Below are positions 2,900 to 27,717 of a DNA stretch of 64,000 nt, piece after piece. The notes under the pieces are model-generated. The model saw only the letters and a list, made by a program, of their open reading frames with translations. It did no database searches and was not told where the DNA came from. Source of the DNA: an uncultured Gammaproteobacteria bacterium. GTDB taxonomy: Bacteria; Pseudomonadota; Gammaproteobacteria; JAURND01. Made by a program: the position numbers and the translations under genes. Position 1 is the first letter of the stretch. Each line of letters opens with the position of its first letter. The stretch lies in contig CAVQQD010000002.1 in the NCBI GenBank assembly GCA_963714975.1, forward strand, positions 928,001 to 992,000, given 5' to 3'.

Positions 2900-3658
2900 A
2901 TGATAAAAAGTTTAAAAATAATTCTTTTTATGAGTATTTTCGCTGCCGTTATTACTGCTTGTGCTAATAATGTTAATAAACTTCCCAATGGCTTTGTATT
3001 CTTAGCAGATATTGATCCCACGATCATAGAAAATAGCCGATACTACACGGATCAAAATTTCTTGGGTAGGCCCATTGCTGGGTACAACGCCAGCAAAATT
3101 ATATGTACTAAAGAAGCAGCTGAACAATTAAAAAAAGCGCAGGAATTTTTCAAAAGTCAGGGGTACAAACTGGTCATTTACGATGGTTATAGACCGCAAG
3201 CTGCGGTTGATGACTTTAAGCGCTGGGGCGAAAATCCAAAGGATACTATAGCTAAAGCTTATTACTATCCTAATCTCAGCAAAAAAGCACTATTTAAACT
3301 AGGATATGTAGGAGATCAACACTCTTCTCATAGTCGAGGAAGTACTTTTGATTTAACCCTGATAAAAGCTAACCAGAGCTTAAAACTCCTAAGCTATTCT
3401 AAGCGCAGGCTAAAAAATGGAGAAGAAATCCCCTTTTTAGATGATAACACTGTCGATATGGGATCCAGTTTTGACCTGTTTCACGAAGTTTCACATCATG
3501 ATAGCCCTTTGGTACAACCCTCTCAGACCCAAATGCGCAATTTTTTACGGGAAACCATGAAACAATATGGCTTCGATGAATATCAATATGAATGGTGGCA
3601 TTATACATTACACAACGAGCCCTATCCGGAAACTTACTTTAGTTTTAATGTCAGCTAA
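2900..3658 (+). CDS. ddpX: D-Ala-D-Ala dipeptidase (VanX/DdpX, peptidase M15D), putative lipoprotein
   Basis: YDGYRPQ, SSHSRGSTFDLTL, DMGSSFD and EWWHY motifs; lipobox-like ITAC. Confidence 0.9.
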   Translation: MIKSLKIILFMSIFAAVITACANNVNKLPNGFVFLADIDPTIIENSRYYTDQNFLGRPIAGYNASKIICTKEAAEQLKKAQEFFKSQGYKLVIYDGYRPQAAVDDFKRWGENPKDTIAKAYYYPNLSKKALFKLGYVGDQHSSHSRGSTFDLTLIKANQSLKLLSYSKRRLKNGEEIPFLDDNTVDMGSSFDLFHEVSHHDSPLVQPSQTQMRNFLRETMKQYGFDEYQYEWWHYTLHNEPYPETYFSFNVS

Positions 3659-3660
3659 TC

Positions 3661-3820
3661 AGAATAACCAAGTTTCAGTTTCTTCATCATACAAACGTCT
3701 GACTTCATAGTCTTCAAAAATAGTTAAATCATTTTTCATAGAAAGAAATCCTTGCATTATGATAGAAAGGTAAATAATTCGGTTAATTATATACTGATTA
3801 TCCAAAACAAAAACCCCGTA
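3661..3820 (-). pseudogene. 5' fragment plus upstream region of a BRO-family gene
   Basis: MKNDLTIFEDYEVRRLYDEETETWLF matches the start of 25515-26369; nucleotide similarity to 26291-26450. Confidence 0.8.
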
Positions 3821-3832
3821 GTCCGATCATGC

Positions 3833-4765
3833 TCATTGTGTTATGTTGATATCCAACCCCAAAATACTACGCCAGCCCAGCTGATTCGAGTCAATTGCTT
3901 TAATTGGGGTGACATCGTGCCATAGCGCATGATCTTTATTTTCAGCAATCATTGCATTACCTTTGGTAGTTAAGTCTCTCATAAATATACCTTCACCTAC
4001 CCCAAGCGTCGTGCGGTAAAGCTCTTGTATTTTATCAGGCGCATAAATACTGCTTTCAGCACCTGAAACCTGATGTTTTTCAATCACTAAAGCGGAAACA
4101 ATATAATCTGCGCCATCTTGATGCATACCTTCAGGTGCATTGGTCGCAATATGACCAGGACTGGTGAATACTTGCATTTGATGAACAATTATCTCTATTT
4201 TTGAAACCGCAGGATGCCATGGTAATAATAATTGCGTTACCATTGATTTTAAAAATTGATGCAGCAGAGGATTTTGAATAAATTCTGGCCTGCTAGGTGT
4301 AATATTTCTCTCAATACTCCGATAATCCTGATATAGAAAATACTGCTTAAAAGCACCCATTGGTGCATGGTTTATGGCAATGCTTTCGGATAAAATCTCT
4401 AGTTCAAACCGGCAAATTGCTCTTTTTCTTAAGGGTCTAATTGTCTTAAAATATTCCAAATCATTATTCTCTAGTTGATTTAAAATGAAATTTAATTCCT
4501 CGATGCTTTTATTGCCACGATAATAATCAACAAAAATATTATCCAGCCTTTCAGATAGTTGAGAATTTGTTAATTTTGAACGCAAAAATTCAAGATGACT
4601 ACGTCGATAATCATATAAATCAGGAGCTAAATCAGCAAAGCTTGAGCTAATTTGCGCAATAAATGATTGGCTGTCTAGCCCTAATTGGGAAACATTAAAA
4701 TGGACAATAGAACCCCAGGGTGTTTCTAAATGGAGTAGAAATCCTGTTTTTTGGTGAGCTTTCAT
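3833..4765 (-). CDS. 2OG-Fe(II) dioxygenase family protein (2OG-Fe_Oxy_2-like)
   Basis: NAPEGMHQDGADY (HxD), LWHDVTPI and RSILGLD. Confidence 0.8.
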   Translation of the reverse strand: MKAHQKTGFLLHLETPWGSIVHFNVSQLGLDSQSFIAQISSSFADLAPDLYDYRRSHLEFLRSKLTNSQLSERLDNIFVDYYRGNKSIEELNFILNQLENNDLEYFKTIRPLRKRAICRFELEILSESIAINHAPMGAFKQYFLYQDYRSIERNITPSRPEFIQNPLLHQFLKSMVTQLLLPWHPAVSKIEIIVHQMQVFTSPGHIATNAPEGMHQDGADYIVSALVIEKHQVSGAESSIYAPDKIQELYRTTLGVGEGIFMRDLTTKGNAMIAENKDHALWHDVTPIKAIDSNQLGWRSILGLDINITQ

Positions 4766-4878: not shown

Positions 4879-5142
4879 AAAAAAGGCCAGAACCCCCCTG
4901 TTTTACTGGAGATTCTGGCCTTCTCTGGACATCTTAAGATTGAAACTTGGTGGGGCGGCGAGAATCGAACTCGCGTCCGCAAATCCTCTACCGTCGGTTC
5001 TACATGTGTAGCCTCATCATTTATATAACTAACTAGCGCCCAATGGGCAAGGAAACTAGCTAGCGAGTCTTCTTAATTTAGCAGTTTAAGCGAAGACGCC
5101 TTAAACTACGATCTTATGTGGAATAACCACTGAGGAAGGTCC
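4879..5142 (-). repeat. Displaced copy of ssrA 3' 195 nt plus downstream terminator (attR-like direct repeat of 27647-27913)
   Basis: Near-identical to 27647-27913; 1-nt deletion in the acceptor stem and a few substitutions. Confidence 0.95.
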
Positions 5143-5270
5143 GGGGCTGGGTACTGATTGAATCAGACGTAACATGGTCTCAGAATTGGCCACATCGGTA
5201 AAGTACTTTTTACCATCCGCCGCCTCCAATTTCAGTCGGTGACAATTTGTCACCGACTCACTACCTTCTG
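5143..5270 (-). pseudogene. Internal fragment of BRO-family gene
   Basis: EGSESVTNCHRLKLEAADGKKYFTDVANSETMLRLIQSVPSP parallels EGSEVVTNCHQLKMTAEDGKLRLTDVANAETLLRLIQSVPSP of 25515-26369. Confidence 0.85.
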
Positions 5271-5720: not shown

Positions 5721-8700
5721 TCAAAAACTAATCTTCTCAAGAATATTATAATGATGACAATCCAGTTCGTAGATTTTGAAATGCCTAACATAATTGTCTA
5801 GATTATTAGCGATTGTATCAACATAATATTGGTGGATCTTAAAATTAAAATCAATTGCTTCCTGAGAACTGTCTGGATTTATATTTTTTAACTGGGTATG
5901 GTCAACCCTAATATTAGCTTTAATTAATTTAATCTCTGTACCTTCGAACAATCCACTACAGCCCTTGGGATCATATTTATAGTTAATATCTTGATAAACT
6001 TCTTTAGGAATATTCATATCTTTACAAATATCATGAATTGCTTTTTTATAGTTAAAATAAGAATCTAATAAAATTAATTTACTAACTGCATGGCCACTTT
6101 GTTTCAATTGCCGGGTTATTTCAAATGCCAAGACGCCACCAAAACTCCACCCCAAAAAATTATAGGGCCCTTTAGGTTGAATTTTCTGTAATTGCAAAGT
6201 GTAATATTTAGCTAATTCTTCAAAAGTCAATTTACTTTGTAATAACTGATTGTCTTTTACATGATGTAAAAAATTATTAAAAATAACCAGTTTTTTATTT
6301 TTAAACTTTGGCAATAAATGATTATAGTATGACTCAGCGCCTCCATGTCCCGGCGGAAAAATGAATAACGGATCTTCATTAACATCTTCATTAACTATTT
6401 CAAATGGAATAAAATTCGCAAAATCGCTTTGGGTATTTTCCTGCTCGCCGTCTCTAAGTACAGTAATGCAATGCTTGATTATATTTTTCAAATGATACTC
6501 GAATCGAATTGTAACGAGCCGAGTTATTTTTTTGCCAAGTCGTGTCACAATATTAAAATGTAATTGTCCTTCTGAAACATAACCGCTAATATTAATAAGT
6601 GTACTATCCTGGTTATCTTGATGCATGCTTAATCCCGAATCATCCAATGATATTTGCCAATCTCCTTCCTGCTTATCAAATTGCCCTAAATAATTAAACC
6701 TAATGGGCGGTAGTTTATTAAAAGCAATTGAGCTATTCTCCACCACACTAAAACTGCCATAACCTAATCCTTTATGCGGAATTAATCTTAAGCTTTCTTT
6801 AATATGCTTGATGCTTGCTCTGACCGTATCCTGTAATTCTAACTTCACAGGATACATAATGGTGAACCAACCCACGGTGTAAGAATGATCAATGCTTTCA
6901 TCAATGTGTTCACGGCCATGTCCTTCTAAAGTAATTCCATTAACAGTAGATCCTTGCCAGTCTTTTAAGGCATAAGCCAATGCGGTTAATAGCAAATCAT
7001 TAATCTCCGTGTGGTATGCCTGATTGGCTTTTTGTAACAATTGTTGGGTTATGGTCTTCGGTAGTTTAATCTCTCCTAGCTCTGGTTCATAAATTTCACT
7101 TCTTGAATAATTAGGCAACGAATCTAAAATGCCGTTCCAATAATCAGCTTCATGTTTATGACTCAAGTGATATAGTTCAACTACCTTGACCCACTGACGA
7201 TAACTACTAGCTTTGTTACCTAACACTTCTCCCTTATATAGCCTATGAATATCGTCAGCCAATATTCTCCAGCTGACCGTATCGACAATTAAATGATGCA
7301 GAGCAAAATAAATTCTTGCACTACCATCGGGATAACCTGAAATATAACCTATTTGAAATAATGGACCCTTTGCTAAATCAAATTCCGATTGCCATAAAGT
7401 TAATCGTTGATTAATTTGCTCACTACTCTGATGATTGATTTGCAATCTTTTTAATCCTGAAAATGAGATATTTCTTTGATAAGATTGCGACCACTTATTT
7501 TCTTTTTGATTAAAAATCACCCGGAGAATATCATGCTGCTCGACTAGTTTCTCTATACACGACTCTAATTTATCCTCATCTAATTCAGGAACTCTAATCA
7601 GAAAACTTTGATTCCAATGCCAAGGTCGTTTAAATTTATCTGTAGAAACCTGATCAAAAAACCATTGTTGAATTGGTAATAAATCAAATGTTCCTTCCAG
7701 CAATCCTTGCTCACGCTGAATTTTTAGCGACGGAGTTGTGCTTTCTAATAAATATTGCGCCAGCTTCTCTACGGTACGATGTATAAATATATCTTTCACA
7801 CCACAGTTAATATTTAATTGACGTAGTCGAGAGCTTAACTGAATGCTTGAGATTGAATCACCACCTAACCGAAAGAAATCATCGCCTATGCTAATCTTAT
7901 CAACTGGTAACCCAAGCACTGCTGCATAGACCTCACTTATTTGTTTTTCCAATTCATTGCGTGGAGCAATATAATGATCTGCGCTAACAAATTCAGGGTC
8001 GGGTAATGCTTTTCGATCCAGCTTGCCATTGATGGTTAATGGCAATTTATCCAGCCAGACTAAAGCACTGGGGATCATGTAGTCTGGTAATTGCTGAGAC
8101 AGATAATTAAGCATAGCATTGTGATTTAGTGATCTATCTGCTACATAATACCCAACTAAATATTTATTTCCAGTGGGTAAGCCGCTTTCATTTAAGTGTT
8201 CTCTAGCCAACACCGCGGCCTGCTTGATTTCTGGATAGCTAGACAGTTTAGCTTCAATTTCACCCAACTCAATGCGGAATCCTCTAATTTTTACCTGGAA
8301 ATCATTCCTGCCAATGTATTCAATATTACCATCAGCTAAATAACGCACTAAATCACCGGTTTTATATAAATGGGCATTCTTGTTAGTCGCCTTTTCTTGC
8401 TCCGTTTGAAATGGATTAGCAATGAATTTTTCAGCCGTTAATTCCGGCAAATTCAAATAACCACGCGCTAAGCCAGCTCCACCTACATACAGTTCACCTA
8501 TTGCACCTATGGGCAATGGATTGAGACCAGCATCCACTATATAAATGTTCTGATCCGGAATTCGTCTTCCTATATATGAATTATTTCCTAAGTCTTCTGC
8601 TGCAATGGGCTTGTAAGTTACATGAACTGTTGTCTCAGTTATTCCATACATATTCACTAATAGCGGCTTGGTATAGCCATAAACATCGAACCACGGTTGT

Positions 8701-11700
8701 AATTGCCAGAAATTTAAGGCTTCACCAGCAAAAATAATATATCTGAGGCTGCTTAGCTGATGAGGAGCCGATATTGCTAAATCAATAAATTGATAAAAAA
8801 CACTGGGCGTTTGATTTAAAACAGTTACCCCGTGTTGCTCACAAAGTTCATAAAATAGTTTAATGTCTCTGGTCTGCTCATAACTGGGTATCAACAATTT
8901 ACCGCCATGACATAAGGCTCCCCACATCTCCCAGACGCTAACATCAAATACATAGGCATGAAATAGTGTCCATACATCCTGGCTATTAAAGTGATACCAG
9001 TCATCGGTTGCCAACAACAATCGATGCACATTATTATGCTGCTGCAATACACCTTTGGGTTGGCCCGTAGTTCCGCTGGTATAAATTACATAGGCTAGAT
9101 TGGTACTGTTGATATGCTGCGGCAAATTAGTTTCTTGATAGGCATTTAACTTACTTTGTAATTCATCGCCATCAATCGCTTCGATATGCGTTGCTAAAGC
9201 ATGTTTACTTATGATGTCAGCAAGACGTGCTCGATATATTTCATTAGTTAAACATAGTTTTGCAGCCGTATCTTCTAAAGCATAAGTGATACGTTCATCA
9301 GGATAACGAGGATCCATCGGCACATATGCCGCGCCAGCTTTTAAAACTGCTAAAATGGCTATGAGCATTTTTTCACTGCGATCTAGGCATAAAGCGATTA
9401 AATCATCCCCTTGAAGCTGATAATGCTGCCGCAGATAATGCGCGAGTTGATTCGCTTTTGTATTGAGTTCACGATAAGTGAGCTGTCTGTTCTCATACAC
9501 CAGGGCAATATGGTCTGGCGTTCTTTCAACCTGTTCTTCAAACAACTGGTGTATCGTTTTATCTGCTGGATAATCTCGCTCGGTTTTATTCCAGTCTAGA
9601 ATTATTTTCTGGTAATCAGCAGCATTGAGATAACTGAGCTCATTTTGTTGTTCCACTCCAATGACTGTGATCTGATAGAGCAATGATTCCAAACAGCTTA
9701 ATAGTGTCTCTATAGTTTTCACACTAAACAATTCAGCTGCATATTTGAGATTGATTTGGATTCGTCCTTCTTGTTCATAGGCGGTAATTGCCAACGGATA
9801 ATCTAACGCTTCCATTCCCTGAAATCCACTCAATTTGAGCAAATGATCTTCCATTTTTTGTGGCACAGGATAATTTTCGTATATAAACAAACTATCAAAC
9901 AATCTTCTTCCTGAAGACTGTAATTTAGCTAGATTGATATCACTATAACTATTCATTTCATTAATTTTATTCTGGAGTATTTTTATTTGCTCTATAATAG
10001 TTTCCTCACCTTCATGATTAACGATCAACGGTAAAGTATTTATATATAGACCCACGGAGCTTTCTATCTCATCTATGGGCAAATTCCGACCTGAAATAGT
10101 TGTCCCAACCACAGTAGTCTGGCTATTGCCATATACACTTAATAATTTATGCCAACTATATTGCAACAAGGCATTAACTGTAATGCCATGCTCATAACTA
10201 AAAGCCTTAATAGACTGATACAAAGATTGCTCAGCATGAACACTGGCTTCAGCTTTATCGACGATGAAACGATACTCCGCTAATTTGATGCTTTTTTTAT
10301 CCAGACGGAGTAACCCAGTTAAGTCAGGATAGTCTATAACCTTGGCTAACTCCATGCGCCAATAGTTTTCACTAGCAAGATGCCTCCTTTGCAAATAAGC
10401 CTGACTTAATAGATACGCCACCTCTTCCTGAATATTTGCCAATATTCGTACTTGCATGGCACTATTCGTTCTATTTGTATACAGTTGCAAATACAAATCA
10501 TGAACAAAGCCCAATAATAAAGGAGTACTCCAGCCATCTAGAATCGCATGATGGCTACTAAAAAGACAGCTATAGCTGGCCTCTCCCTGCTTCAGCAAAT
10601 GTATGCGTAGCAACTGGCCTTGATCTAAGTGATAGCTGTGCTGACGATCATGCACCACTAGCTCATTCATGTAATATTCTTGTTGCTGCGGGTCTTTCGC
10701 ACTGATATCACTATACTGCCAATATAACTCTTGATGCTGATCGATGATTTGTACTAACTTCTCATCCCAGGAAAATCGCAAACGCAAGCTCGGATATTTT
10801 TTCAGTGCTCCTTGCCAGGCCATTCTTAATAACTCAGGTTCCAATGAGTTCTCATAGTTAAATAGAAACTGCACCCGGTACGCGGTATCTGTTTCACCTT
10901 GATTCAGAGCATGATAGATAAATCCCTGCTGTAAACTATTGGCTAAATACACATGCGTAATCGCTTGCTGAGCCTGGATCTTATCTAAATAACTCTGCGA
11001 GATAATGTAATCGATATCACTGGTCGTTAAATAGGCTCTCGGCAAGTCAACTGTATGCTTAATAATCGCGAGTACTTCCCTTTTAAATGCTTCTACCAGA
11101 TGATTCAGATCATTCTGACTGAGCTTAGACAATAGCCCAAAACGCAGCTCACCTTGATAAACTGCACCATTGGCATTAATAATATTATTGTCTATATTGG
11201 CATGGGATACCGCCATACCACTTGGCTCACCGGTAATCATCCAGTTACTTTCATCTTTGCCGCTTGCATCAAATTGACCGAGGTAGTTAAAAGTCACTCG
11301 TGGTAAATCCTGATGGCTATAACCCAGTAAGGCCCCATAACCAATCCCTTTATGTGGAATCCTCCTCAGACTTTCTTTCACCTGTACAATCGATTGAGAA
11401 ATATTCTCCACAGTGGCCAATTTAACTGGATACATCGTCGTAAACCAACCTACGGTATGAGTAATATCAATACCCTGGGCAATTTCTTCACGGCCATGGC
11501 CTTCCAAGGTAATGTAAATGTAATGGATTTCCTGATGCGTTAACTGCGCTAAGGCTCTGCCAAAAGCAGTCAGCAATAAATCATTAATCTCGGTATGATA
11601 GGCGTGACCACTGTCTGCCAATAATTGCCTCGTGCGCTCTTTATCCAAACTCATTTCCGCATAACTTTGGCTATCCTCATTGGGTAATAATGCGATTAAA

Positions 11701-14700
11701 TGACCTTCCTCTGCCGCCAGACCAGATAATTCTTCCTGCCAATAACTCCGCTCAACCATTTGGGTTTCTGCATATACTTGCACTTGCTCAACCCATTGCC
11801 GATAACTTGTTCCCTTTCTACCCAGCAATTGTTCACTGCTTTGCTGCAGGATCTCATCCAGCTTATTATTGCTCTGAGCTATACTGAGTTTTTCGTACAG
11901 TTCGCGTAAATCATGGGCTATAATTCGCCAACTGACTGCATCGACTAATAAATGATGCAGCGCAAAGAAAATTTTTCTACTGCCATCTGGATATCCTTCC
12001 AAATAGCCTATTTGGTATAAAGGCATCTCTGCTAATAATTCAAAATGGCTTTGCCAATCTGTTAACATCTCTTGATATTCAGACGTTGTGAACTCACTGA
12101 CATTGGCATAAGCTAGAATAAGCGCGTCAAAACTTATCGCAGGACTATAATATTGTTGGTAATTACCCGCTGTTGTTAATCGATAATTCAATCTAAAGGC
12201 ATCATGATATTCTATTAATTTAACTAAACTATGCTTGAGTAATTCCTGATCTAACTTGCCGGTCTTGATCAAAAAAGCTTGATTCCAATGACCAGGTCGT
12301 GGATAGAAACCACTACTTACTTGGCTGAAAAACCAGGCCTGAATTGGCAAAAAGTCCACTTCTCCTGATAATACACCATTTTCTGTGAGCAGCTGCTCCG
12401 GTAAATTAGCTGCATTCGCCAGCTGCTCTGCTAATACCTTTTCACAGAGCTTTTCTACCGTCTTATGTGCAAAAATATCTTTAACGCTAATCGTTAACTG
12501 CAACTGCCTGCGTATTCTACTGACCAGCTGAATGCTAATAATACTGTCACCGCCTAACCTAAAAAAATCATCCCGTATACCAACACTTTCTGCCGACAAA
12601 CCCAGCGCCTCAGCGTATATCTCACAAACTTGACGTTCGAGGTCATTGGAGGGCGCTACATAATTTAATACGTCGCTGAACTCAGGATCTGGTAAGGCGT
12701 TTCGGTCTAATTTACCATTGATAGTTAATGGCAATTGATCTAAATAGATCAATACATTGGGCACCATATAATCTGGTAATTGCATACGCAAATAATCAAG
12801 AATGCTATTTTCATCTAATGGATTATTCGCAACGTAATAACCCACAAGATATTTACTTTGATTTTGCGTATGTTCTTTAACCGACACCGTCGCTTGGTTT
12901 ATTTCCGAATAGTTCAGTAGTTTATTTTCAATTTCACCTAACTCAATTCTAAAACCACGGATTTTTACCTGAAAGTCATTTCTCCCCAGATACTCGATAT
13001 TCCCGTCCGGTAAATATCGCGCCAAATCTCCCGTTTTATACAAGCGGGCATTCTTGCCAGCCTTTTTTTCTGTTTCACTTTGAAATGGGTTGATGATGAA
13101 ACGTTCTGCAGTTAAATCTGGAAGGTTCAAATAACCTCGTGCCAAACCTACTCCGCCGATATACAGTTCACCAATTACCCCAATGGGCAATGGCTTAAGA
13201 TCTTCATCTAGGATGTATATCCGAACATTAGTAATCGGCTTGCCGATATCAGTACTCAAATCCTGATTTCTATAGTGATTTAATGTCACATAAACTGTCG
13301 ACTCTGTTGGGCCATAAGCATTTATTACATTTACTTGATTATTTTTATAATACTCCAATATCTCTTTTTCCGTTTTATCCCCACCTACTACTAAAGTATT
13401 CAATAATAGCAAATGATCTAAAGTGAGTAGTGCGGGCGGTATTAGTGCAACATTAATCTTATAAAGATTAATATACTCTGATAATAACTGAACATCTTGA
13501 CGTATAGCATCACTCACTATATGCGTTGTATGTCCATTGATAATAACCGTAAATAACTCCCACACATGTGCGTCAAATACATAATTGGCATAGCACAGGC
13601 ACTTTAAAGCGAAAAGCTTATTTTCGTACTGCCTGGTCAGGCCAAACTCTTTGGCCTGCATTACTGCTAAATTCACCACACTTCTATGTTCAATCATTAC
13701 ACCCTTAGGTTTTCCTGTAGTACCGCTGGTATAGATCACATAGGCCAAATTAGCACTGGTAATAGGCTGTGACAGGTTAGTTCCTTGGTAGGCATTTAAT
13801 TTATTTTGTAATTCATTGCTATCAATCGCTTCGATATGCGCTGATAAAGCATGTTTATTTATAATGTTAACAAGGCGTGCTCGATGTATTTCATTAGCTA
13901 AACACAGTTTTGCGCTGGTATCTTTTAAAACATAAGCGATACGTTCATCAGGGTAACCGGGATCCATCGGCACATAGGCTGCACCTGCTTTTAATACTGC
14001 TAAAATCGTTATGAGCATCTGTTCACTGCGATCTAAGCACAATGCAACTAAATCATCCCCTTGTAAGTGATATTGTTGCTGTAGGTAATGCGCGAGTTGA
14101 TTCGCTTTTGTATTGAGTTCACGATAAGTGAACTGTCTGTTCTCATACACTAGGGCAATATGGTCTGGCGTTCTTTCAACCTGCTCTTCAAACAACTGGT
14201 GTATCGTTTTATCCGCCGGATAGTCTTTATCAGTTTTATTCCAATCTATTATTAATTTATTATAATCTTTTGATAACAAACTGGATTTATAGCTTTTACC
14301 TTCTAATGCCAAATCCAAGTTATAAATAAAATATTTCATCAAATAATTGAGGTAGTCTTCCTCTATAAAATCATCATGCGCTACCAGCGTGATATTAAAC
14401 TCCTCTTCTGCCTTCTGAGAAACGTTTAGCACACAAGGAATATTGGTACGTTCATAACCTTGAAGATCAATAATATCTTCCATTGACTCTTGAAAAATAT
14501 GAAAGTGAACAAAATTATAAGCAAATTTATAAACTTCATGACCCATCATACTTTTAATATAACCATAGGGCATTATTTTATATTCATACAGTCTTAGTTT
14601 TTCTTCAAATATTTGCTCTGTGCTTATTTTATCCAGCTTATATCTAAAGGGAATAGTGTTCAGAAATAAACCAAATAATTTATCACCTCCTTCAAACTCA

Positions 14701-17700
14701 GGACGATTATTGACGACCAGACCTAAAGTCACATCATCACTATTTAAAAATTGGGACAATGTTTCCACATAGGCATGTAAAAATATTGTGTCTACACCTA
14801 TAGATAGTTCGCGCGCCATCTTGATCGCTTTCGAAACTTTATCTCCAGTCAAGCTATGACGGCTATAAAACAAACCGTCTGCTGATTTAGTTTTTGAAAA
14901 ATTCCAATTGATGCTTGGCAGTTCAACATCTCGTAAGTAATCTTTCCAAAAATTAATATTATCGACATCTTTGATTGCATTTTGTTCATCCTTAACAAAT
15001 TCTCCATAGCTAATTGAAAATTCCGGGGATTCTATTGTTAAGTTATGCACATATTCCTGAACAAACTCATTAATTAACGAAGCCACACTCCAGCCGTCGG
15101 TTATTGCATGATGAAATGAAAATATTAGATCAAATCCATCATCTAATTTATTGACCAGTAACCTGAATAATCCAAACTCTGTAAAATCAAAATTATGAAC
15201 TCTCTCCTGGGCAATCAATGAGTCTACATTTTGATTTTCAAATAATACATAATCTTTGGTCAATGTCTTGGCTATTTCCACGTTATAGCCGGTGCTCACA
15301 GTTAAAAATCTGGCGCGTAGTAACTCATGCTTTGCGATAAGTTTATTCCATACGGATAAAAACTTATCACTTTCAAAATTACTCGATAATTTATAAGAGA
15401 AAACATCATGATAGGCACCATATTCATCCAACTCGGATTCCAATAACATGCCCATTTGTAAATAACTGGCGGGATAGGAATCTTCGACGATATCAAAGTC
15501 AATTTTCGCCAATTGCGCGGCGGTTAAAAAACTGAACTTCGTATAGGTCTCTCTCAAAAAAGGCGCTTCATGAATACTCGATTGAATCAGATCAGATAAT
15601 CTTCCTACTGTTTTTTTATTAAAAATATCTTTAACTTTAACTGCGCTATTTAAAGCAGTATTTATTTTACTGACCAATCTAATAGCAATAATACTATCGC
15701 CACCCAACCTGAAGAAATTATCATTAATGCCCACCTTCTCTACCGATAAGCCCAGTACTTCGGCATATATTTTACACAGCATATGCTCTAAATCATTGCG
15801 CGGTTCTACATAATTCAATTCATCACCAAACTCTGGATCCGGTAATGCTTTCCGGTCGAGTTTGCCATTGATCGTTAATGGCAGTTGCTCTATATGCATT
15901 AATACATTGGGAACCATATACTCAGGTAATTGACTATGCAGATAACCAATAATATCATCTGCTGCTAAAGGCCTTGGCGCCACATAATAGCCTACCAGAT
16001 ATTTACTCTGATTTTCCTGATGTTCTCTTGCCAACACAACTGCTTGTTTTATCTCAGGATAACTCAGCAATTTATTTTCAATCTCGCCCAATTCAATCCT
16101 ATATCCACGGATTTTTACTTGAAAGTCATTTCTACCGATATACTCGATACTTCCATCTGGTAAATAACGCGCTAAATCTCCAGTCTTATACAAGCGCGCA
16201 TTTTTTCCTGTCTGCTTTTCCGCTGCACTTTGGAAGGGATTTGCAATAAATCGTTCTGCTGTTAAATCGGGAAGATTTAGATAACCGCGCGCCAAACCTG
16301 CACCACCTATATACATCTCGCCTATTGCCCCCATTGGCAATGGATTGAGACCAGCATCCACTATATAAATGTTTTGATCCGGAATTCGTTTTCCTATATA
16401 TGAATTATTTCCTAAGTCTTCTGCTGCTATGGGCTTGTAAGTTACATGAACTGTTGTCTCAGTTATTCCATACATATTCACTAATAGCGGCTTGGCATAG
16501 CCATACACATTGAACCAGGGTTGTAATTGCCATAAATTTAAGGCTTCACCACCAAAAATAATATATCTGAGGCTGCTTAGCTGATGAGGAGCTGATATTG
16601 CTAAATCAATAAATTGATAAAAAACACTGGGCGTTTGATTTAAAACAGTTATCCCGTGTTGCTCACAAAGTTCATAAAACAGTTTGATATCTCTGGTCTG
16701 CTCATAACTGGGTATCAACAATTTACCGCCGTGACATAGGGCTCCCCACATCTCCCAGACGCTAAAGTCAAATACATAGGCATGAAATAGTGTCCATACA
16801 TCCTGGCTATTAAAGTGATACCAGTCATCAGTTGCCAACAACAATCGATGCACATTGTTATGCTGCTGCAATACACCTTTGGGTTGACCCGTAGTTCCGC
16901 TGGTATAAATTACATAGGCCAAATTAGTACTGGTAATAGGTGATGAGAGGTTAGTTCCTTGGTAGGCATTTAATTTATTTTGTAATTCATTGCTATCAAT
17001 CGCTTCGATAGGCGTTGATAAAGTATGTTTATTTATGATGTCAGCAAGACGTGCTCGATGTATTTCATTAGCTAAACACAGTTTTGCGCTGGTATCTTCT
17101 AAAATATAAGCGATACGTTCATCAGGATAACCCGGATCCATTGGCACATAGGCTGCTCCTGCTTTTAATACTGCCAAAATCGCTATGAGCATCTGTTCAC
17201 TGCGATCTAAGCACAATGCAACCAAATCATCCCCTTGCAAGTGATATTGTTGCTGTAGGTAATGTGCAAGTTGATTTGCTTTAGCATTTAATTCACGATA
17301 GCTTAACTGCTGATCTTCATAAACCACTGCAATATGATCTGGAGTTCTTTCAACCTGTTCTGCAAACAGTTGATGAATGGTTTTATCTGCTGGATAGTCT
17401 TTATCAGTTTTATTCCAATCTATTATTAATTTATTATAATCTTTTGATAACAAACTGGATTTATAGCTTTTACCTTCTAATACCAAATCCAAGTTATAAA
17501 TAAAATATTTCATCAAATAATTGAGGTAGTCTTCCTCTATAAAATCATCATGCGCTACCAGCGTGATATTAAACTCCTCTTCTGCCTTCTGAGAAACGTT
17601 TAGCACACAAGGAATATTGGTACGTTCATAACCTTGAAGATCAATAATATCTTCCATTGACTCTTGAAAAATATGAAAGTGAACAAAATTATAAGCAAAT

Positions 17701-20700
17701 TTATAAACTTCATGACCCATCATACTTTTAATATAACCATAGGGCATTATTTTATATTCATACAGTCTTAGTTTTTCTTCAAATATTTGCTCTGTGCTTA
17801 TTTTATCCAGCTTATATCTAAAGGGAATAGTGTTCAGAAATAAACCAAATAATTTATCACCTCCTTCAAACTCAGGACGATTATTGACGACCAGACCTAA
17901 AGTCACATCATCACTATTTAAAAATTGGGACAATGTTTCCACATAGGCATGTAAAAATATTGTGTCTACACCTATAGATAGTTCGCGCGCCATCTTGATC
18001 GCTTTCGAAACTTTATCTCCAGTCAAGCTATGACGGCTATAAAACAAACCGTCTGCTGATTTAGTTTTTGAAAAATTCCAATTGATGCTTGGCAGTTCAA
18101 CATCTCGTAAGTAATCTTTCCAAAAATTAATATTATCGACATCTTTGATTGCATTTTGTTCATCCTTAACAAATTCTCCATAGCTAATTGAAAATTCCGG
18201 GGATTCTATTGTTAAGTTATGCACATATTCCTGAACAAACTCATTAATTAACGAAGCCACACTCCAGCCGTCGGTTATTGCATGATGAAATGAAAATATT
18301 AGATCAAATCCATCATCTAATTTATTGACCAGTAACCTGAATAATCCAAACTCTGTAAAATCAAAATTATGAACTCTCTCCTGGGCAATCAATGAGTCTA
18401 CATTTTGATTTTCAAATAATACATAATCTTTGGTCAATGTCTTGGCTATTTCCACGTTATAGCCGGTGCTCACAGTTAAAAATCTGGCGCGTAGTAACTC
18501 ATGCTTTGCGATAAGTTTATTCCATACGGATAAAAACTTATCACTTTCAAAATTACTCGATAATTTATAAGAGAAAACATCATGATAGGCACCATATTCA
18601 TCCAACTCGGATTCCAATAACATGCCCATTTGTAAATAACTGGCGGGATAGGAATCTTCGACGATATCAAAGTCAATTTTCGCCAATTGCGCGGCGGTTA
18701 AAAAACTGAACTTCGTATAGGTCTCTCTCAAAAAAGGCGCTTCATGAATACTCGATTGAATCAGATCAGATAATCTTCCTACTGTTTTTTTATTAAAAAT
18801 ATCTTTAACTTTAACTGCGCTATTTAAAGCAGTATTTATTTTACTGACCAATCTAATAGCAATAATACTATCGCCACCCAACCTGAAGAAATTATCATTA
18901 ATGCCCACCTTCTCTACCGATAAGCCCAGTACTTCGGCATATATTTTACACAGCATATGCTCTAAATCATTGCGCGGTTCTACATAATTCAATTCATCAC
19001 CAAACTCTGGATCCGGTAATGCTTTCCGGTCGAGTTTGCCATTGATCGTTAATGGCAGTTGCTCTATATGCATTAATACATTGGGAACCATATACTCAGG
19101 TAATTGACTATGCAGATAACCAATAATATCATCTGCTGCTAAAGGCCTTGGCGCCACATAATAGCCTACCAGATATTTACTCTGATTTTCCTGATGTTCT
19201 CTTGCCAACACAACTGCTTGTTTTATCTCAGGATAACTCAGCAATTTATTTTCAATCTCGCCCAATTCAATCCTATATCCACGGATTTTTACTTGAAAGT
19301 CATTTCTACCGATATACTCGATACTTCCATCTGGTAAATAACGCGCTAAATCTCCAGTCTTATACAAGCGCGCATTTTTTCCTGTCTGCTTTTCCGCTGC
19401 ACTTTGGAAGGGATTTGCAATAAATCGTTCTGCTGTTAAATCGGGAAGATTTAGATAACCGCGCGCCAAACCTGCACCACCTATATACATCTCGCCTATT
19501 GCCCCCATTGGCAATGGATTGAGACCAGCATCCACTATATAAATGTTTTGATCCGGAATTCGTTTTCCTATATATGAATTATTTCCTAAGTCTTCTGCTG
19601 CTATGGGCTTGTAAGTTACATGAACTGTTGTCTCAGTTATTCCATACATATTCACTAATAGCGGCTTGGCATAGCCATACACATTGAACCAGGGTTGTAA
19701 TTGCCATAAATTTAAGGCTTCACCACCAAAAATAATATATCTGAGGCTGCTTAGCTGATGAGGAGCTGATATTGCTAAATCAATAAATTGATAAAAAACA
19801 CTGGGCGTTTGATTTAAAACAGTTATCCCGTGTTGCTCACAAAGTTCATAAAACAGTTTGATATCTCTGGTCTGCTCATAACTGGGTATCAACAATTTAC
19901 CGCCGTGACATAGGGCTCCCCACATCTCCCAGACGCTAAAGTCAAATACATAGGCATGAAATAGTGTCCATACATCCTGGCTATTAAAGTGATACCAGTC
20001 ATCAGTTGCCAACAACAATCGATGCACATTGTTATGCTGCTGCAATACACCTTTGGGTTGACCCGTAGTTCCGCTGGTATAAATTACATAGGCCAAATTA
20101 GTATTGGTAATAGGTGATGAGAGGTTAGTTCCTTGGTAGGCATTTAATTTATTTTGTAATTCATTGCTATCAATCGCTTCGATAGGCGTTGATAAAGTAT
20201 GTTTATTTATGATGTCAGCAAGACGTGCTCGATGTATTTCATTAGCTAAACACAGTTTTGCGCTGGTATCTTCTAAAATATAAGCGATACGTTCATCAGG
20301 ATAACCCGGATCCATTGGCACATAGGCTGCTCCTGCTTTTAATACTGCCAAAATCGCTATGAGCATCTGTTCACTGCGATCTAAGCACAATGCAACCAAA
20401 TCATCCCCTTGCAAGTGATATTGTTGCTGTAGGTAATGTGCAAGTTGATTTGCTTTAGCATTTAATTCACGATAGCTTAACTGCTGATCTTCATAAACCA
20501 CTGCAATATGATCTGGAGTTCTTTCAACCTGTTCTGCAAACAGTTGATGAATGGTTTTATCTGCTGGATAGTCTTTATCAGTTTTATTCCAATCATATAT
20601 TAATCTGTCAAAATCTGCGTTTGAAATCAATTTAAGCTGATTGAAGCCACGATTAATATTATTCTGTTCTAAACTATTTAAAATAAATTGGTAGGTTTTA

Positions 20701-23700
20701 AAAATACATGCAACAGTTTCTTTATCATATATATCTACTAAATAGCTGATATTAAAGACAACCTTGTCCGCATACTCCTTGGCAAAAACTGATATTCCAA
20801 ATTTCTCAGAATTATTTGAATCCAGTAGTTTACTAATATCCATGTTTATATTAACTTCGTCAGTGCCTTTGAAATTATGCATGGTAAACATAATTTGCAT
20901 CAACTCAGCGACTTCTTCTCCTTTCTTCGGAGATAAATTAACGATGTTATTTAAATTGATATCTGCATATTGATTTAAAAATATAATTTCATCGTTTACC
21001 TTGCGCAGGTTATCTAATATTGTGTCCTCAGAAGAGTAATCAAACATCAATGGCAGCGCACTAACAAATGGACCTAAGGCTTTTATAAAATCATATCTGC
21101 GATTAGAAACAGTAATGCCGATAGGAAATTTTTCATCATTAAAATTATATTTATCGAGAACATGATAGAAAATAGTCAAAAATAGTGTGTATAAGCTAAT
21201 ATCATTATTCGTTGATAACTGTAGCAATTTCTCCATTCTCAATGTGGAGATTTCAAAAGTAAAATTCTCTCCAACATTATCAGAACTATCTATAGTTATT
21301 TTGGACAGCTGGATAGGCTGTGCTTTGTTGAATTTTACTAGTAGTTTATTTATGGCAACATTATAGTCTGCCGTTTGTAATAAGGCATACTGATGGGGGA
21401 TATAATCTAAGTAATCAAATTTAGAAGCCTCGGGTATATCTACACCTTCTTTAATTTTATTATAGTTATCTAAAAGTTCAGCTATTAATAATTCAACTGA
21501 TTGGGCATCCGTTAGAATATGATGATGAGTCAAATTTAAAATAATATCGTGGCCTTTATCTATGATCGCTATCTCAGCACAAATTAACGAACCACCATCT
21601 AATCTAAAAATATAATTGGCGCTCACATTGGCATATTCAGCTACCTCCTCTTCTCTAAGATAGACTTTTCGTATTAATATCTCTTCAAATGATAATTTAT
21701 AATGAGATTTATCGATTAGTCGAATTTTTAAAATTCTATTATTCAAAAAGAGAAATCTTATGGCTTCTTCAAAAACATCAACATCGACATCACTTATTCT
21801 CAACAATACCGGAACATTGTAAGTTGTTGGCAGGGCATCCAAATTACTTTGAATATATATAGCATTTTGTATATTTGAAATTCTATTATCATTAGCTAAC
21901 AGTTCATCTGATATTTTGAAAATATTGATCGGTTTATGCTGTTCTCCACTGGATTCTAGCAGCAGCGTAATATGATTGGATAGAGATTCTACACTTCTAA
22001 ATTGATAAAAATCTTCGAGCTTTACTTCGGTAAATTCCTTGGATAATCGAGAAGCTGCTAGCATTGCTGCTAAAGAATTGCCCCCTAATTTAAAGAAATC
22101 GTCTCTTATTCCCACTTTGCTCGTTGGCAAACCCAGCGCTGCTGCGTATACCTCGCAAAGTTTATGGTCCAAATCATTGCGAGGCGCTATATAGGTGAAT
22201 TTAATGCTGGACTCTGGTTCAGGCAAAGCTCGTAAGTCCACTTTTCCATTGATGGTCAATGGCAACTTATCTAGACGAATTAATATGCTTGGTACCATGT
22301 AGTCTGGTAGCTGACTATGCAGATAATCAAGAATAGCATTTTCTTCTAATTGACTATCGGCGACATAATAACCGATTAGGTACTTATTACTGTTATCTTC
22401 AGCATGATGTTCTTTAGCTATCACCACAGCTTGCTTTATTTGTGGATAATTGACCAATTTGCTTTCGATTTCACCTGGTTCAATTCTCAAACCATGAATT
22501 TTTATCTGAAAGTCACTTCTGCCAATAAATTCTATATTTCCATCAGGCAAATAGCGGGCTAGATCCCCCGTCTTATATAACCTAGAATTCTTACTCGCTT
22601 TTTTTTCTACTTCGGTTTGGAAAGGATTAGTAATAAAACGTTCCGCAGTTAAATCTGGAAGATTCAAATACCCGCGTGCTAAACCAATGCCACCGATATA
22701 TAACTCTCCTATTGCCCCCACTGGCAAAGGATTGAAATTTGGGTCCAGGATGTATATCGTAATGTTGGCAATAGGTTTTCCAATATTGGTATTTAAATCA
22801 TCACCTTTGTAATGATTTAACGTGGCACAGACAGTTGATTCCGTGGGCCCATAGGCGTTTATTATGTTTATTTGATTATTCCTATAGTGCTCTAATAGTC
22901 TTTTTTCTGTTTTTTCTCCCCCTATTATTAAAGTACGTAGCGGCAATAAGCTGTCAATTGTTAATATTGCTGGAGGTATAGTTGCTATTTTAATCTGATG
23001 GAGATTAATATAGTCCGATAATAATTCCATATCGTGAAGTATACTATTTTTCACTATATGGATAGTATGTCCATGGGTTATAACGGGAAATACTTCACTG
23101 ACATGAACATCAAATACACAATTGGTATACCATAAGCTATGAATTGATGATCGGGTGTCTTGGAATTGCGTGGATAAATCAATCTCTTGGGCTTGTGCAA
23201 TTAGCAAATTTGTTACGCCTTTATGGGCAATCATCACCCCTTTTGGCTTTCCTGTCGTTCCACTTGTATAAATCACATAGGCTAAATTAGCGCTCAAAAT
23301 ATTTTTAACTGGGTTAGTCTCTGAAAAAGGTTTCAACTTTTTCTGTAACCCATGACTATCGATAGCTTCTATCTCAGTTGTCAATTGGTGATGATTGATG
23401 AAATTCGCAATTTGATCTTGATATATCGCATTCGTTATTACTGCCTTTGTCTCAGTATCCTTTAAAATATAAATAATACGCTCTTCAGGATAGCTTAGAT
23501 CTATTGGCACGTATGCCGCACCAGCCTTTAATACGGCCAAAATTGCTATTAACATATATTCGCTGCGGTCTAGATACAAAGCAATTAAATCATCCCCATG
23601 AATAGTATATTTTTCACGTAAATACTGCGCGAATTGGTTTGCTTTGGCATTAAGTTCGTAATAGGTAAGTTGCATGTCTTCATAGATCATCGCGACATGG

Positions 23701-24212: not shown

Positions 24213-25147
24213 TATTCACCACTTTTTTGAAGTAGCCAATTTTTTTCTTTTAGCTTAGGGGAAGTGAATTTATCAATTAAACCTGCTCTATCTAATTGAA
24301 TAAGAATGTTTTTAAGTAATGGGCTATCTTTTGTTAATCTGAAGTCCTTATAGGTCTCTTCTAACATAGAAGTTGCTTCATTTTCCAAAAAACCTAATTG
24401 AAGTAGTATTTGTCTCTCGAATTCCATTTGGACTTGCACACCTAAATATAACTCTAGAAACGATGGCAATATATTGGCAATATTTTCCTTATATGCATCA
24501 GAAATGTTCTTCCAAATATATTTTAATAAGTGAAAGAAAATTCCAGAATGTCTAGCTTCATCTGACAAATGATCGTTTAGCATTTTTTGAAAGAATGGAT
24601 GTGTTTCACTTTTAGCTGTCATGCTAACAATTTCTTTAGTCAGCGTATTTTCAGCTAAACAAACAGCGATCAAGTCAAATACTCCATGGTATTTGTTTGG
24701 TAGTTTTTCTTTTACGGTTTTCATTGCTCTTTCTATTTCGATAGTCTTTGGCAATGGCAATGGTGCAATATTAGTATTTTTTTCAATTTGCAGCATGCAA
24801 TCATATGCAACATAGGCATGATAGGATTCATCAACCATAATGGTATACAGATTAAGTTTTTGCTCTTCAGAAAACTCAATTGGCAAGGTATTAGTAACTA
24901 CAGTTAGAATTACATTATTCACCACTCTTGTTTCTATCACAGCAATATCATTAGAATATTTGTAAAAAGATTGGGTAAGCAAGTAATTGAGCGCACCATT
25001 ACCTTTCTCCAGTATTTTTGGATGAACTGCTAATGGTTGCTGAGAAATAGGCAAAAAATAGCCTTTAGTGGTAGCGTCAAAGACGATTCGTGGCCTGCTC
25101 CTCACACTAGAGCGTTTTTCCCATTTATCTTGTATCTTATGTTCCAT
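24212..25147 (-). CDS. AurF/PvfB/HamC-like diiron amine N-oxygenase
   Basis: WEKRSSVRSRPR start, diiron ligands VDESYH, AENTLT and DHLSDEARH; stop overlaps the NRPS start (TAATG). Confidence 0.88.
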   Translation of the reverse strand: MEHKIQDKWEKRSSVRSRPRIVFDATTKGYFLPISQQPLAVHPKILEKGNGALNYLLTQSFYKYSNDIAVIETRVVNNVILTVVTNTLPIEFSEEQKLNLYTIMVDESYHAYVAYDCMLQIEKNTNIAPLPLPKTIEIERAMKTVKEKLPNKYHGVFDLIAVCLAENTLTKEIVSMTAKSETHPFFQKMLNDHLSDEARHSGIFFHLLKYIWKNISDAYKENIANILPSFLELYLGVQVQMEFERQILLQLGFLENEATSMLEETYKDFRLTKDSPLLKNILIQLDRAGLIDKFTSPKLKEKNWLLQKSGE

Positions 25148-25514: not shown

Positions 25515-26369
25515 TTACTTTGCTTTTTTGGTTTTATCTTTTATCATCTTATCCATGTTTTGTGGCAAATAATTTGCCTTTGTAACCACTTTCTTGCCAG
25601 TCTTGTTTTCCAATGCAATACGGGCAGTTTTTGCAATCCCTCCCCCTTGTTTGCTGGCTACCTCATTCTCCGGCATCCCTTTTGCTTCCATCGTCTCCGC
25701 AATTTGCCGAGTCGATAATTCTGCCAACGCAGTAAAAATCAATTCCGCCTCGCTCATATGATCGCGCAGATTTTCAGTTTTCAGCCCCTTAGCTTTTTTG
25801 TGATCTTTAACGCTAATCCCCGCCCATTCTTGATGAATAATATTAGTCAGGATGGCAAATTCATCTGGTTTTTCGACACCATTATCTTTCCAGTAATCTG
25901 TCAGCTTATTACGGGTTTCCTGACCCATCATCCGTTGCTGAATCCATTTTTCACTATATCCATGCTGCCGCCAAGTTTCCCTAGCTCTATTCAAAGACCT
26001 GGCTGGGTCGGCCATTTCCTGCATCCGCTCATAACCTACTTTAGCCAACCATAACTTGATCGGCTCTGCTTTAGGGCTGGGTACTGATTGAATCAGACGT
26101 AACAAGGTTTCAGCATTGGCAACATCGGTAAGCCTTAATTTGCCGTCTTCTGCCGTCATTTTCAACTGGTGACAATTTGTCACCACTTCACTGCCTTCAT
26201 TTTTTAGCCTTTGCTTCAACTTATTCCAGTACTTTCGGACAGTTTGGTAATCAGGCTGTTGAATTAATGCCTGTATAATATCAATAACCGAGAATAGCCA
26301 AGTTTCAGTTTGTTCATTATACAAACGGCGGATTTTATAGTCTTCAAAAATGGTTAGATTATTTCTCAT
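25515..26369 (-). CDS. BRO-N domain / phage antirepressor-like DNA-binding protein
   Basis: WLFSVIDII, YWNKLKQRL, LRLIQSVPSPKAEPIKLWLA and NLRDHMSEAEL; ATG at 26369. Confidence 0.85.
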   Translation of the reverse strand: MRNNLTIFEDYKIRRLYNEQTETWLFSVIDIIQALIQQPDYQTVRKYWNKLKQRLKNEGSEVVTNCHQLKMTAEDGKLRLTDVANAETLLRLIQSVPSPKAEPIKLWLAKVGYERMQEMADPARSLNRARETWRQHGYSEKWIQQRMMGQETRNKLTDYWKDNGVEKPDEFAILTNIIHQEWAGISVKDHKKAKGLKTENLRDHMSEAELIFTALAELSTRQIAETMEAKGMPENEVASKQGGGIAKTARIALENKTGKKVVTKANYLPQNMDKMIKDKTKKAK

Positions 26370-26438
26370 AGGGAAATCCTTGCATCTGAATAGAGAGAGG
26401 CTAAAGTTTTGGCTGATTATAAACTGATTAGCCACAAT

Positions 26439-26475: not shown

Positions 26476-26724
26476 CTACTGTGCTGGAACAAGCTTTTTT
26501 AATTGCTCAAAAAGCAGCCCAAGCTCCTCTAGATAATCATCTACTGCCCATAAGGCATGATAAAGAGTATTATTATCCAATTCCATTTCTCCACGCACAA
26601 ACTGCGCAGCAAACATGATACAAGTCAGAACAGCCTGGGATTTTTGAACTTTGGCATATATCAAATCCTGAACATTAATAATTGCCACTGAAGAAGGTGA
26701 ATCGTGGTTAGGAAAATTACTCAT
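26476..26724 (-). CDS. Small hypothetical protein (82 aa) of mobile-element type
   Basis: AGGAG SD then MSNFPNHDS...; helical LYHALWAVDDYLEEL. Confidence 0.6.
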   Translation of the reverse strand: MSNFPNHDSPSSVAIINVQDLIYAKVQKSQAVLTCIMFAAQFVRGEMELDNNTLYHALWAVDDYLEELGLLFEQLKKLVPAQ

Positions 26725-27139
26725 TAAACAGCTCCTGATTAATATGTTTATATTGCATATTGCCAATTACAATTGGCGGCCAGGAGCTAAACACCGTAAT
26801 CAGAACGGCGGACTAATTTCCTCTTCAGGTATTGTATTCGTCCACTCCCAGCCATGGGCTAGGCAAAAAACCGTATCTAACAGGACGGTTACCGCTGATT
26901 AGTGTGTTTAGCACCAGTTCGGAGGGTAGCATCGGTCTTCAAACAAATCAATCCTAAAGCAAACTGCGTAGTCAACTATCATTTATGAGTTATCTTGCGG
27001 GAAAATCTTGTAAAGATTTAAGACTTTAAACACTGATATTACATAATTATTAAAATAAAATTATATTTTTTACTGCATAAGTCGGTTGGGCAATTTCCTA
27101 TTCATCAATACATTAGAAAATAAACCAGGATGGGTCATT

Positions 27140-27549
27140 TCAATTATGCGGTGGTTTTAACTCTCGCAATGGTGGAATTAATTCTCCAACTTCAACGTGC
27201 AAGGTAAAAGCAATCTGAATGAGATTTTGAATAGATAGATTTTGTTCCCCTCTTTCAACCTCAAAGCTATTCGCTGCACGATCTGCCCTACTTGCTTTGA
27301 TTGCCTTACGGTTTTCTCCAGGGTCGATGCTATCTACTAATAGCTTCCTAGCTTCATCTCGTTATTCTCTCGCTTTGGCAAGAGTAACGTCGGGATAAAC
27401 GCCAACGGAGAGCAGTTTTTCTTTCCCATCGAAACGCCACCACTTACCCCCAGCAGGAGTAATGAGCAAAAACAAACCTTTTTCGTCTGCCAGTTTATAA
27501 GGCTTTTCACGAGGCTTTATATTGCGGAGGTGATATCGGTTAAAGGCAT
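27140..27549 (-). pseudogene. P4/IntA-type tyrosine integrase N-terminal arm-binding fragment fused to an XRE-HTH C-terminal fragment
   Basis: MPLTDI/frameshift/IKPREKPYKLADEKGLFLLITPAGGKWWR..GKEKLLSVGVYPDVTLAKARE*RDEARKLL..IDP...NSFEV then ERGEQNLSIQNLIQIAFTLHVEVGELIP. Confidence 0.85.
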
Positions 27550-27550
27550 T

Positions 27551-27602
27551 TTGGGGTAACCTAAGTTAATGGTAACTCTATTACCCCTATAGTTACCCCT
27601 AT
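27551..27602. promoter_or_regulatory. Putative integrase arm-type binding repeats
   Basis: GGGGTAAC facing the tandem TTACCCCTAT-AG-TTACCCCTAT between ssrA and int. Confidence 0.55.
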
Positions 27603-27646
27603 CCAACCTAGGATGTCAATGAATTTTATAAGACAGCATAAGACAT

Positions 27647-27692: not shown

Positions 27693-27717
27693 CTCTGGAC
27701 ATCTTAAGATTGAAACT

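Follow-up and report, generated by a model that had tools for sequence, protein, structure and literature searches.

The stretch of DNA analysed here, a window of 64,000 nucleotides from an uncultured gammaproteobacterium, contains one tmRNA gene (ssrA) called by ARAGORN, at 27718..28078 on the minus strand. The gene has been left intact, matching the Rfam family RF00023 with 196 bits over model positions 1-374, and its acceptor stem has a G3.U pair, with GGGGGCG as the 5' strand. The genes ddl, murB and murC were identified upstream of it with Pfam, and the same genes lie near ssrA in three relatives. An island is located at the 3' end of the tmRNA gene, and the low-GC foreign DNA starts downstream of it (GC of 0.33-0.41 inside the island vs. 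0.45 on the mur side).

Reading away from ssrA, the following features were found in the island, all of them on the minus strand: the remnant of an integrase gene (27140..27615); an RNA of the sRNA-Xcc1 family (26770..26853; Rfam RF02221, 63.5 bits vs. a gathering score of 53), placed between this remnant and the next gene; orf96 (26476..26766), a small ORF that travels with a bro gene and has homologues beside bro in a relative (G004) and at a second site of the genome that contains the window; bro itself (25515..26435), encoding a BRO-N domain protein of 306 aa (PF02498, E 4e-8); a gene for an AurF-like di-iron N-oxygenase (24212..25147; PF11583, E 8.6e-15); and an intact NRPS gene (5721..24212) encoding 6163 aa. 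The 18.5-kb frame of the NRPS is uninterrupted. Pfam, applied to two halves of the protein, and five-fold internal repeats indicated five modules; adenylation and carrier domains number five each, condensation-domain stretches seven, and the protein ends with a thioesterase. A bro-like fragment (5143..5268) and a displaced piece of ssrA (4948..5142) follow, and the first gene beyond the displaced copy encodes a 2OG-Fe dioxygenase (3833..4765, minus strand; PF10014, E 2e-25).

Just beyond the island, at 2900-3658 on the plus strand, there is a VanX-like D-Ala-D-Ala dipeptidase gene (Pfam, E 6e-44), adjoined by an alpha/beta hydrolase gene and by a FadL-family frame of 230 residues, which matches only profile positions 41-223 of 421. 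The GC around 2900-3658 is 0.39-0.42 and, therefore, this region may be older foreign DNA. On the other side of ssrA, the repeat finder detected short palindromic repeat families at 34980-61839 (D9, D10, D15 and D20), among them CCTTCTCCC...GGGAGAAGG, which occupies six sites, and a hairpin of 68 nt present both at 55445 and at 57229.

The tag predicted for the intact tmRNA (27950-27985, minus strand) is VNDEVAFGKVA, with GUA as the resume codon and VA at its end. The tags of the six relatives examined all start with AND and end with AA (ANDENTYAIAA, ANDENFAVAA, ANDETFAVAA, ANDESKLVAKAA, ANDENSYLAAA and ANDSKYQVAVAA). The proteolysis signal of the tmRNA in the window may be altered.

The displaced ssrA copy and its missing base

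The stretch 4879-5142 (minus strand) proved to be a direct repeat of 27647-27913 by pairwise alignment, by the repeat finder (families D7 and D16) and by blastn, which was run on the complete genome of 2.56 Mb and gave 97.0% identity (267 columns, E 3e-123); no third copy of the 264-nt repeat was present in that genome. The repeat finder placed the two arms 22,770 bp apart, bounding the low-GC island of 22.8 kb. The repeat comprises the last 194 nt of the tmRNA and 69 nt of the spacer and terminator. In the upstream arm, the spacer and terminator occupy 27647..27717 (minus strand; alignments). In the downstream arm, the displaced 3' part of ssrA covers tmRNA positions ~167-360 (4948..5142, minus strand; Rfam, alignment and repeat finder), and its own spacer and terminator follow at 4879..4947 (minus strand; alignment). 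The terminator behind the displaced copy, read from the sequence, has a perfect stem of 8 bp (GGCCAGAA/TTCTGGCC), and that behind the working ssrA has one G.T pair and has lost its closing C; the displaced 3' flank looks more pristine than the flank of the working gene.

The Rfam search returned the displaced copy as the second RF00023 match of the window, a partial one of 67.2 bits that ends at 4948 and is stretched out to 5227 because of an 11-mer, CGCCGCCTCCA. This 11-mer lies at 5218-5228 on the plus strand, inside the bro fragment and 76 bp from the displaced copy, and in inverted orientation it agrees letter for letter with the acceptor 3' strand of the intact tmRNA, the T included. With a chance expectation of 0.01 per window, it may be due to chance or may be a patch that was templated when the junction arose.

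Within the tmRNA part, the two arms differ by C/T at 27813/5042, by A/T at 27796/5025 and by the loss of T27724, which leaves a gap in the displaced copy between 4953 and 4954. Both substitutions fall on positions marked unpaired in the Rfam alignment. Three further substitutions and one GG indel, a change in homopolymer length (G8 vs. G6), were found 3' of the CCA. The intact gene ends in CGCCTCCACCA and the displaced copy in CGCCCCACCA; the position of the deletion is unambiguous because T27724 is the sole T in CGCCTCCACCA. The lost base is the U that pairs with G3 in the acceptor stem, that is, the alanine-identity pair. The original prediction, that a displaced copy lacks exactly the U of the G3-U pair, was hence borne out by the pairwise alignment. 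The positions and the length of 264 bp that it gave were also correct, as was its figure of about 190 bp of repeat on the 5' side of the lesion (189 bp were measured).

The integrase remnant, the bro fragments and the origin of the repeat

The integrase gene beside ssrA was characterized from stop-to-stop ORFs, Pfam and BLASTP as the remnant of a P4-type tyrosine integrase of which only the N-terminal part is left. About the first 107 of the 413 residues of E. coli IntA are represented in it, the catalytic domain being gone, and it matches the Pfam family Arm-DNA-bind_3 with E 1.2e-14. The BLASTP alignments with IntA covered residues 13-73 (38% identity, E 5e-10) and 75-107 (E 0.005). The first residues lie in another frame, and an in-frame stop was found at 27362-27364. 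The remnant adjoins ssrA on the same strand, where CP4-57 has intA. It had been proposed that this integrase is dead, and the N-terminal remnant, the frame change and the in-frame stop all agree with this. No paralogue of the remnant was detected elsewhere in the genome by tblastn, which returned self matches only, and no excisionase or AlpA-type gene was seen among the island ORFs scanned with Pfam. With a dead integrase and no excisionase seen, the island is incapable of excision by its own means.

Close relatives of the remnant were found in two genomes, as a full gene beside tRNA-Asp in G004 and as a second remnant beside ssrA in G002. The latter (L196, G002:C4:443315-443494) follows right after ssrA, has a frame of 103 codons and is 73% identical over 56 residues. 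In G002, which belongs to another genus, ssrA, the spacer, the terminator and the integrase upstream region are arranged as in the window. A displaced ssrA copy was not found in G002 with a pattern of the intact length allowing at most one mismatch, a search that would miss copies without the T.

At the other end of the island, the displaced ssrA piece is fused to the bro-like fragment at 5143..5268 (minus strand), which corresponds to residues ~78-121 (76% identity by tblastn; three-way alignment; repeat families D17 and D18). At the 5142/5143 junction, tmRNA position ~167 abuts bro-like residue ~121 with at most 1 nt of microhomology. Judged by its sequence, the 5' edge of the displaced copy is an illegitimate junction. 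A second bro-like fragment, at 3647..3799 (minus strand; 55% identity by tblastn; repeat family D12), corresponds to residues 3-53 and is found on the far side of the 2OG dioxygenase gene, so that the two fragments are circularly permuted around the displaced copy and the 2OG gene. The 5' edge fused to bro implies that at least one rearrangement not made by the integrase shaped the displaced copy, and the loss of the U could postdate that event.

Genes of the same kind are also found behind ssrA in relatives. In G004 (L029), orf96 and bro lie directly downstream of ssrA, with no integrase there, and in G008 (L030) only bro was seen in that place. These bro copies share 82-84% protein identity with the bro of the window, far above the ~60% of ddl. 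Additionally, a second, diverged orf96-bro pair is present in the same genome as the window (C2:1066461-1067556), and orf96-bro looks like a mobile two-gene module. The orf96-bro pair of G004 and the bro gene of G008 behind ssrA, together with the integrase remnant of G002, indicate that the locus is an old landing site that has been used repeatedly.

Three histories are possible for the 264-bp repeat: a tandem duplication followed by deletions, the integration, by way of ssrA homology, of a circle produced by aberrant excision, and an island whose attP already contained half of ssrA. Between the arms there are 2 difference events in the 189 nt on the 5' side of the lesion and 4 in the 75 nt on its 3' side (Fisher p 0.056). 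A crossover close to the 3' end of ssrA would lower the 5' divergence in this way, and the numbers are a weak hint of one.

It is conceivable that the repeat is not an attachment-site duplication made by an integrase at all, and that the displaced copy is the product of a rearrangement, either a segmental duplication or a Campbell-type insertion of an aberrantly excised circle via ssrA homology. The abrupt passage from tmRNA to bro sequence, the permuted bro fragments, the continuation of the repeat for 69 bp past the gene, and the layout of ssrA, terminator and integrase shared with G002 would all fit such an origin. Nevertheless, the P4-type integrase remnant stands exactly at the position of intA in CP4-57, and the lower divergence 5' of the lesion would be the expected trace of a crossover close to where ssrA ends. 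This origin, which does not exclude an attachment-site history, is considered possible but on the unlikely side.

The same lesion in other ssrA islands

Islands in tRNA and tmRNA genes are, in the Islander concept, marked at their ends by the regenerated target gene and a displaced 3' fragment of it (PMC4383910). Displaced fragments of this sort are usually faithful and short, whereas that of the window is long, reaches past the gene, adjoins a piece of another gene to which it is fused, and has a lesion that kills function.

The two precedents that had been invoked for the loss of a single U, CP4-57 of E. coli and CP4So of Shewanella, are real. Zeng et al. (2016) showed by sequencing that ssrA of Shewanella oneidensis MR-1 loses the U when CP4So is excised, and that the tmRNA is no longer functional (PMC5148205). 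For E. coli, Onodera et al. (2022) showed that delta-U357 abolishes trans-translation, and Table 1 of that paper gives the delta-U in E. coli K-12, S. oneidensis, V. cholerae, S. Typhi and S. putrefaciens (PMC10107115). Four of these five published cases have P4-type integrases. In that paper, the delta-U hosts are gammaproteobacteria, all with ArfA, and the scar is described as a regulatory switch (PMC10107115). The attachment sites of E. coli K-12 were re-aligned, attL CCGCCAGCTCCACCA (in ssrA) vs. attR CCGCCAGCCCACCA, and the same T was seen to be lost.

CP4-57 resembles the island of the window in several respects. It is inserted at the 3' end of ssrA, and its P4-type integrase gene comes directly downstream on the same strand, where the window has a dead remnant that fits in type and position; its size is similar (22.0 kb vs. 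22.8 kb), and in its distal fragment the T partner of G3 is likewise missing. On the other hand, ssrA of E. coli K-12 is followed by a full intA and by alpA and the island excises; attL and attR share ~18 nt instead of 264; and the cargo consists of phage and toxin-antitoxin genes, not of an NRPS. E. coli also has ArfA as a back-up, so that excision of CP4-57 switches between rescue pathways rather than removing rescue. CP4So has a P4-like integrase beside ssrA, the type of which a remnant is left in the window, and shares the delta-U lesion; it differs in its live integrase, in an excision that is regulated (cold and H-NS) and in the length of its attachment match, given as 26 nt by Zeng et al. 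(PMC5148205), and the integrase of the window is dead.

When the T-arm/acceptor sequence of the window, either with the T or lacking it, was used to scan reference genomes, at least 119 matches in the T form were obtained and, among the matches listed, one without the T. This one belongs to Turicimonas muris YL45 (L082/L156; G041:C11:301782-322851) and is a fragment of 24 nt, outside any tmRNA gene, 20.7 kb downstream of an intact ssrA on the same contig and strand. A full P4-type integrase gene lies directly after this ssrA. Neither ArfA nor ArfB was found in the T. muris YL45 genome. T. muris thus resembles the window in its identical T-arm/acceptor sequence, the P4-type integrase beside ssrA, the displaced fragment without the T and the failure to find ArfA or ArfB, while it differs in the short fragment, the intact integrase and the betaproteobacterial host; the N-terminus of its integrase is weakly similar to the remnant of the window. 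We know of no published description of this island. The delta-U lesion hence turns up together with P4-type integrases far outside the published hosts, and the remnant of the window belongs to such an integrase.

Not all displaced ssrA fragments have the lesion. The T is kept in displaced fragments of two genomes of the same class, G011 (L198, C4:~143016; 41 kb downstream of ssrA) and G029 (L200, C5:~13112), in a fragment located 145 bp downstream of the tmRNA gene at L050, and in one of the two matches at L125, where the flanks are too short for placing the gene with ARAGORN. A pattern for the delta-U end gave 37 matches in 34 of the 401 genomes of the class, against ~20 matches for a reversed-pattern control, a background too high for the count to be informative; two of the 37 matches lie in the unpublished genome G149 and are used for no claim here.

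Nearer relatives were also inspected. The order of the organism comprises 9 genomes, in which the nearest tmRNAs are 73-79% identical, and no downstream genes shared with the window were found among the relatives with these tmRNAs. No second T-arm-to-CCA end was detected in G002, G003, G004, G006 or G008 with a pattern of intact length and at most one mismatch, which a copy without the T would not match. A scan of metagenome contigs for empty sites, using the 2OG protein, gave one weak partial match from 55 candidate stretches.

These comparisons bear on the idea of neutral decay, according to which the displaced fragment has no function and the T was lost through one random mutation after integration or after the death of the integrase, the G3.U position being a coincidence. 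The copy does contain six other difference events, the integrase and the two nearby bro fragments are visibly decayed, and the fragments of G011 and G029 retain the T. However, the chance that any of 7 difference events in 264 nt strikes the base pairing with G3 is ~0.026, and 0.008 for an indel; such a strike is unlikely, although not negligible for a post hoc observation. Moreover, the identical loss occurs in at least five published islands (Table 1 of PMC10107115, as cited above) and in T. muris, with P4-type integrases in four of those five and in T. muris, and the 189 nt of the tmRNA part hold only 2 changes besides the delta-U, both at unpaired positions. Neutral decay is a serious rival but on the unlikely side, somewhat more so than an origin by rearrangement.

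The explanation favoured here, with moderate confidence, is that the locus holds a fossil island of the CP4-57 kind, inserted at the 3' end of ssrA by a P4-type integrase, that the delta-U came with this kind of island, and that it now stabilizes the NRPS island passively. The island would supply or adjoin the working 3' end of the tmRNA, and a displaced copy of that end, without the U pairing with G3 as in CP4-57, CP4So, VPI and the T. muris island, would mark the far border. The delta-U would most likely be a trait of the island kind that was present while the element was still mobile, and regulated excision would have disappeared with the later decay of the integrase. The length of the repeat speaks against this explanation, as the 264 bp, with 69 bp past the gene, compare with ~18-25 nt in the two attachment-site pairs that were aligned (T. 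muris and E. coli K-12) and with 26 nt in CP4So. On the whole, the locus is a new case of the already known scar of the CP4-57/CP4So type, now fossil.

Predicted consequences of island loss for the tmRNA

With the integrase decayed, recombination of the RecA type between the 264-bp repeats would be the sole remaining route for a precise loss of the island. The outcome of such events was estimated by crossover arithmetic from the blocks of identity, which measure 100, 16 and 71 bp on the 5' side of the lesion and 39, 13 and 7 bp on its 3' side. Crossovers that move the lesion onto ssrA amounted to 74% if proportional to length and to 89-92% with a minimal pairing segment of 25-30 bp; the remaining crossovers, 3' of the lesion, would give a clean loss (8-26%). 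The claim that most homologous excisions would leave the lesion in ssrA is in line with these values.

A delta-U recombinant assembled in a script was still called as a tmRNA by ARAGORN, shifted by one base. In the fold of its acceptor mini-helix, G1 is unpaired and the stem re-registers as six Watson-Crick pairs with no G.U. The G3.U pair is the alanine-identity pair recognized by the alanyl-tRNA synthetase. A loss of aminoacylation is predicted for the recombinant from this identity rule and from the delta-U357 experiment in E. coli (PMC10107115). The delta-U tmRNA of this organism would not, on this analysis, be a substrate for the alanyl-tRNA synthetase.

SmpB is present in the genome, which is 93.75% complete. 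ArfA, the host factor that takes over rescue with RF2 on loss of tmRNA in the switch described by Onodera et al. (2022), gave no match there at E <= 0.1 (PF03889), and no small ArfB-like RF-1 frame was found. The two frames with an RF-1 domain, of 365 and 353 codons, have the size of RF1/RF2; small ArfB-like frames were recovered by the same search in four of eight relatives, and none of the nine genomes of the order had ArfA over the cut-off. Trans-translation has been described as essential where no alternative was found (PMC5124942). Since neither ArfA nor ArfB was found in the 93.75%-complete genome, cells that have received the delta-U allele would probably be very unfit or dead, and this cost would passively stabilize the NRPS island. 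It had been anticipated that loss of the island could cripple the tmRNA, which is reasonable and is strengthened by the failure to find ArfA or ArfB.

The further suggestion of a built-in retention lock or switch stands only in part. A switch is contradicted by the lack of a live integrase and of any excisionase among the island ORFs scanned, and the delta-U more likely came with the family of P4-type ssrA islands than evolved in this genome. Nothing in these observations points to an adaptation that evolved here. What stands of the lock is the calculated transfer of the lesion in 74-92% of the crossovers; it is leaky in that 8-26% of them would give a clean loss and in that internal deletions can remove the NRPS without touching ssrA.

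A stronger form of the same idea holds that the delta-U is kept by selection as a penalty on island loss, a kind of addiction in which the sole ribosome-rescue RNA of the host is taken hostage, and that it stabilizes the NRPS island even without an integrase. The predominance of crossovers yielding the delta-U allele, the failure to find ArfA or ArfB, the long repeat, which makes RecA-mediated loss a realistic route, and the same combination of a delta-U fragment with no ArfA or ArfB found in T. muris would be in keeping with this idea. It is nonetheless quite improbable for the window: besides the clean losses, deletions inside the island escape the penalty; selection on a lesion in the fragment needs frequent loss events, and none was observed in the public reads described below; and lengthening the repeat would make loss more frequent, contrary to what a design for retention would require. 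Rather improbable too, if slightly less so, is the more general proposal that displaced delta-U copies serve ssrA islands as an addiction device that needs no toxin, even in hosts with neither ArfA nor ArfB such as this organism and T. muris, where island loss would remove the sole ribosome rescue, a device that here would have outlived its integrase and would now protect the NRPS cluster against homologous loss.

An assembly or consensus error, by which a T present in the organism was lost in base-calling or polishing, is very improbable: the genome looks like a long-read metagenome assembly in 3 contigs and another arm difference is one of homopolymer length (G8 vs. G6), but the lost base does not belong to a homopolymer of the same base, the neighbouring NRPS gene keeps its frame over 18.5 kb, which argues against a high rate of indel errors, and cross-mapping of reads between the copies would raise their likeness, not lower it. 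Public data yielded one soil-metagenome run (10% of words) and two runs of the same study; in the comparison with 2000-9000, the only faithful piece was a 198-nt contig at 5344-5541, outside 4879-5142, and no joints were reported.

The direct importance of the window is modest, as it concerns a fossil element in an uncultured organism. New in this case are a repeat far longer than those of the aligned pairs, the junction with a bro fragment, the calculated transfer of the lesion in 74-92% of crossovers and the failure to find ArfA or ArfB. On this last point, the present organism and T. muris YL45, in neither of which ArfA or ArfB was found, contradict the published generalization that all delta-U hosts have ArfA (PMC10107115). 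If the absence of ArfA and ArfB holds, the one-base lesion would be a penalty on island loss and not a switch, an idea that could be tested in T. muris YL45, a cultivable mouse-gut bacterium with a full integrase.
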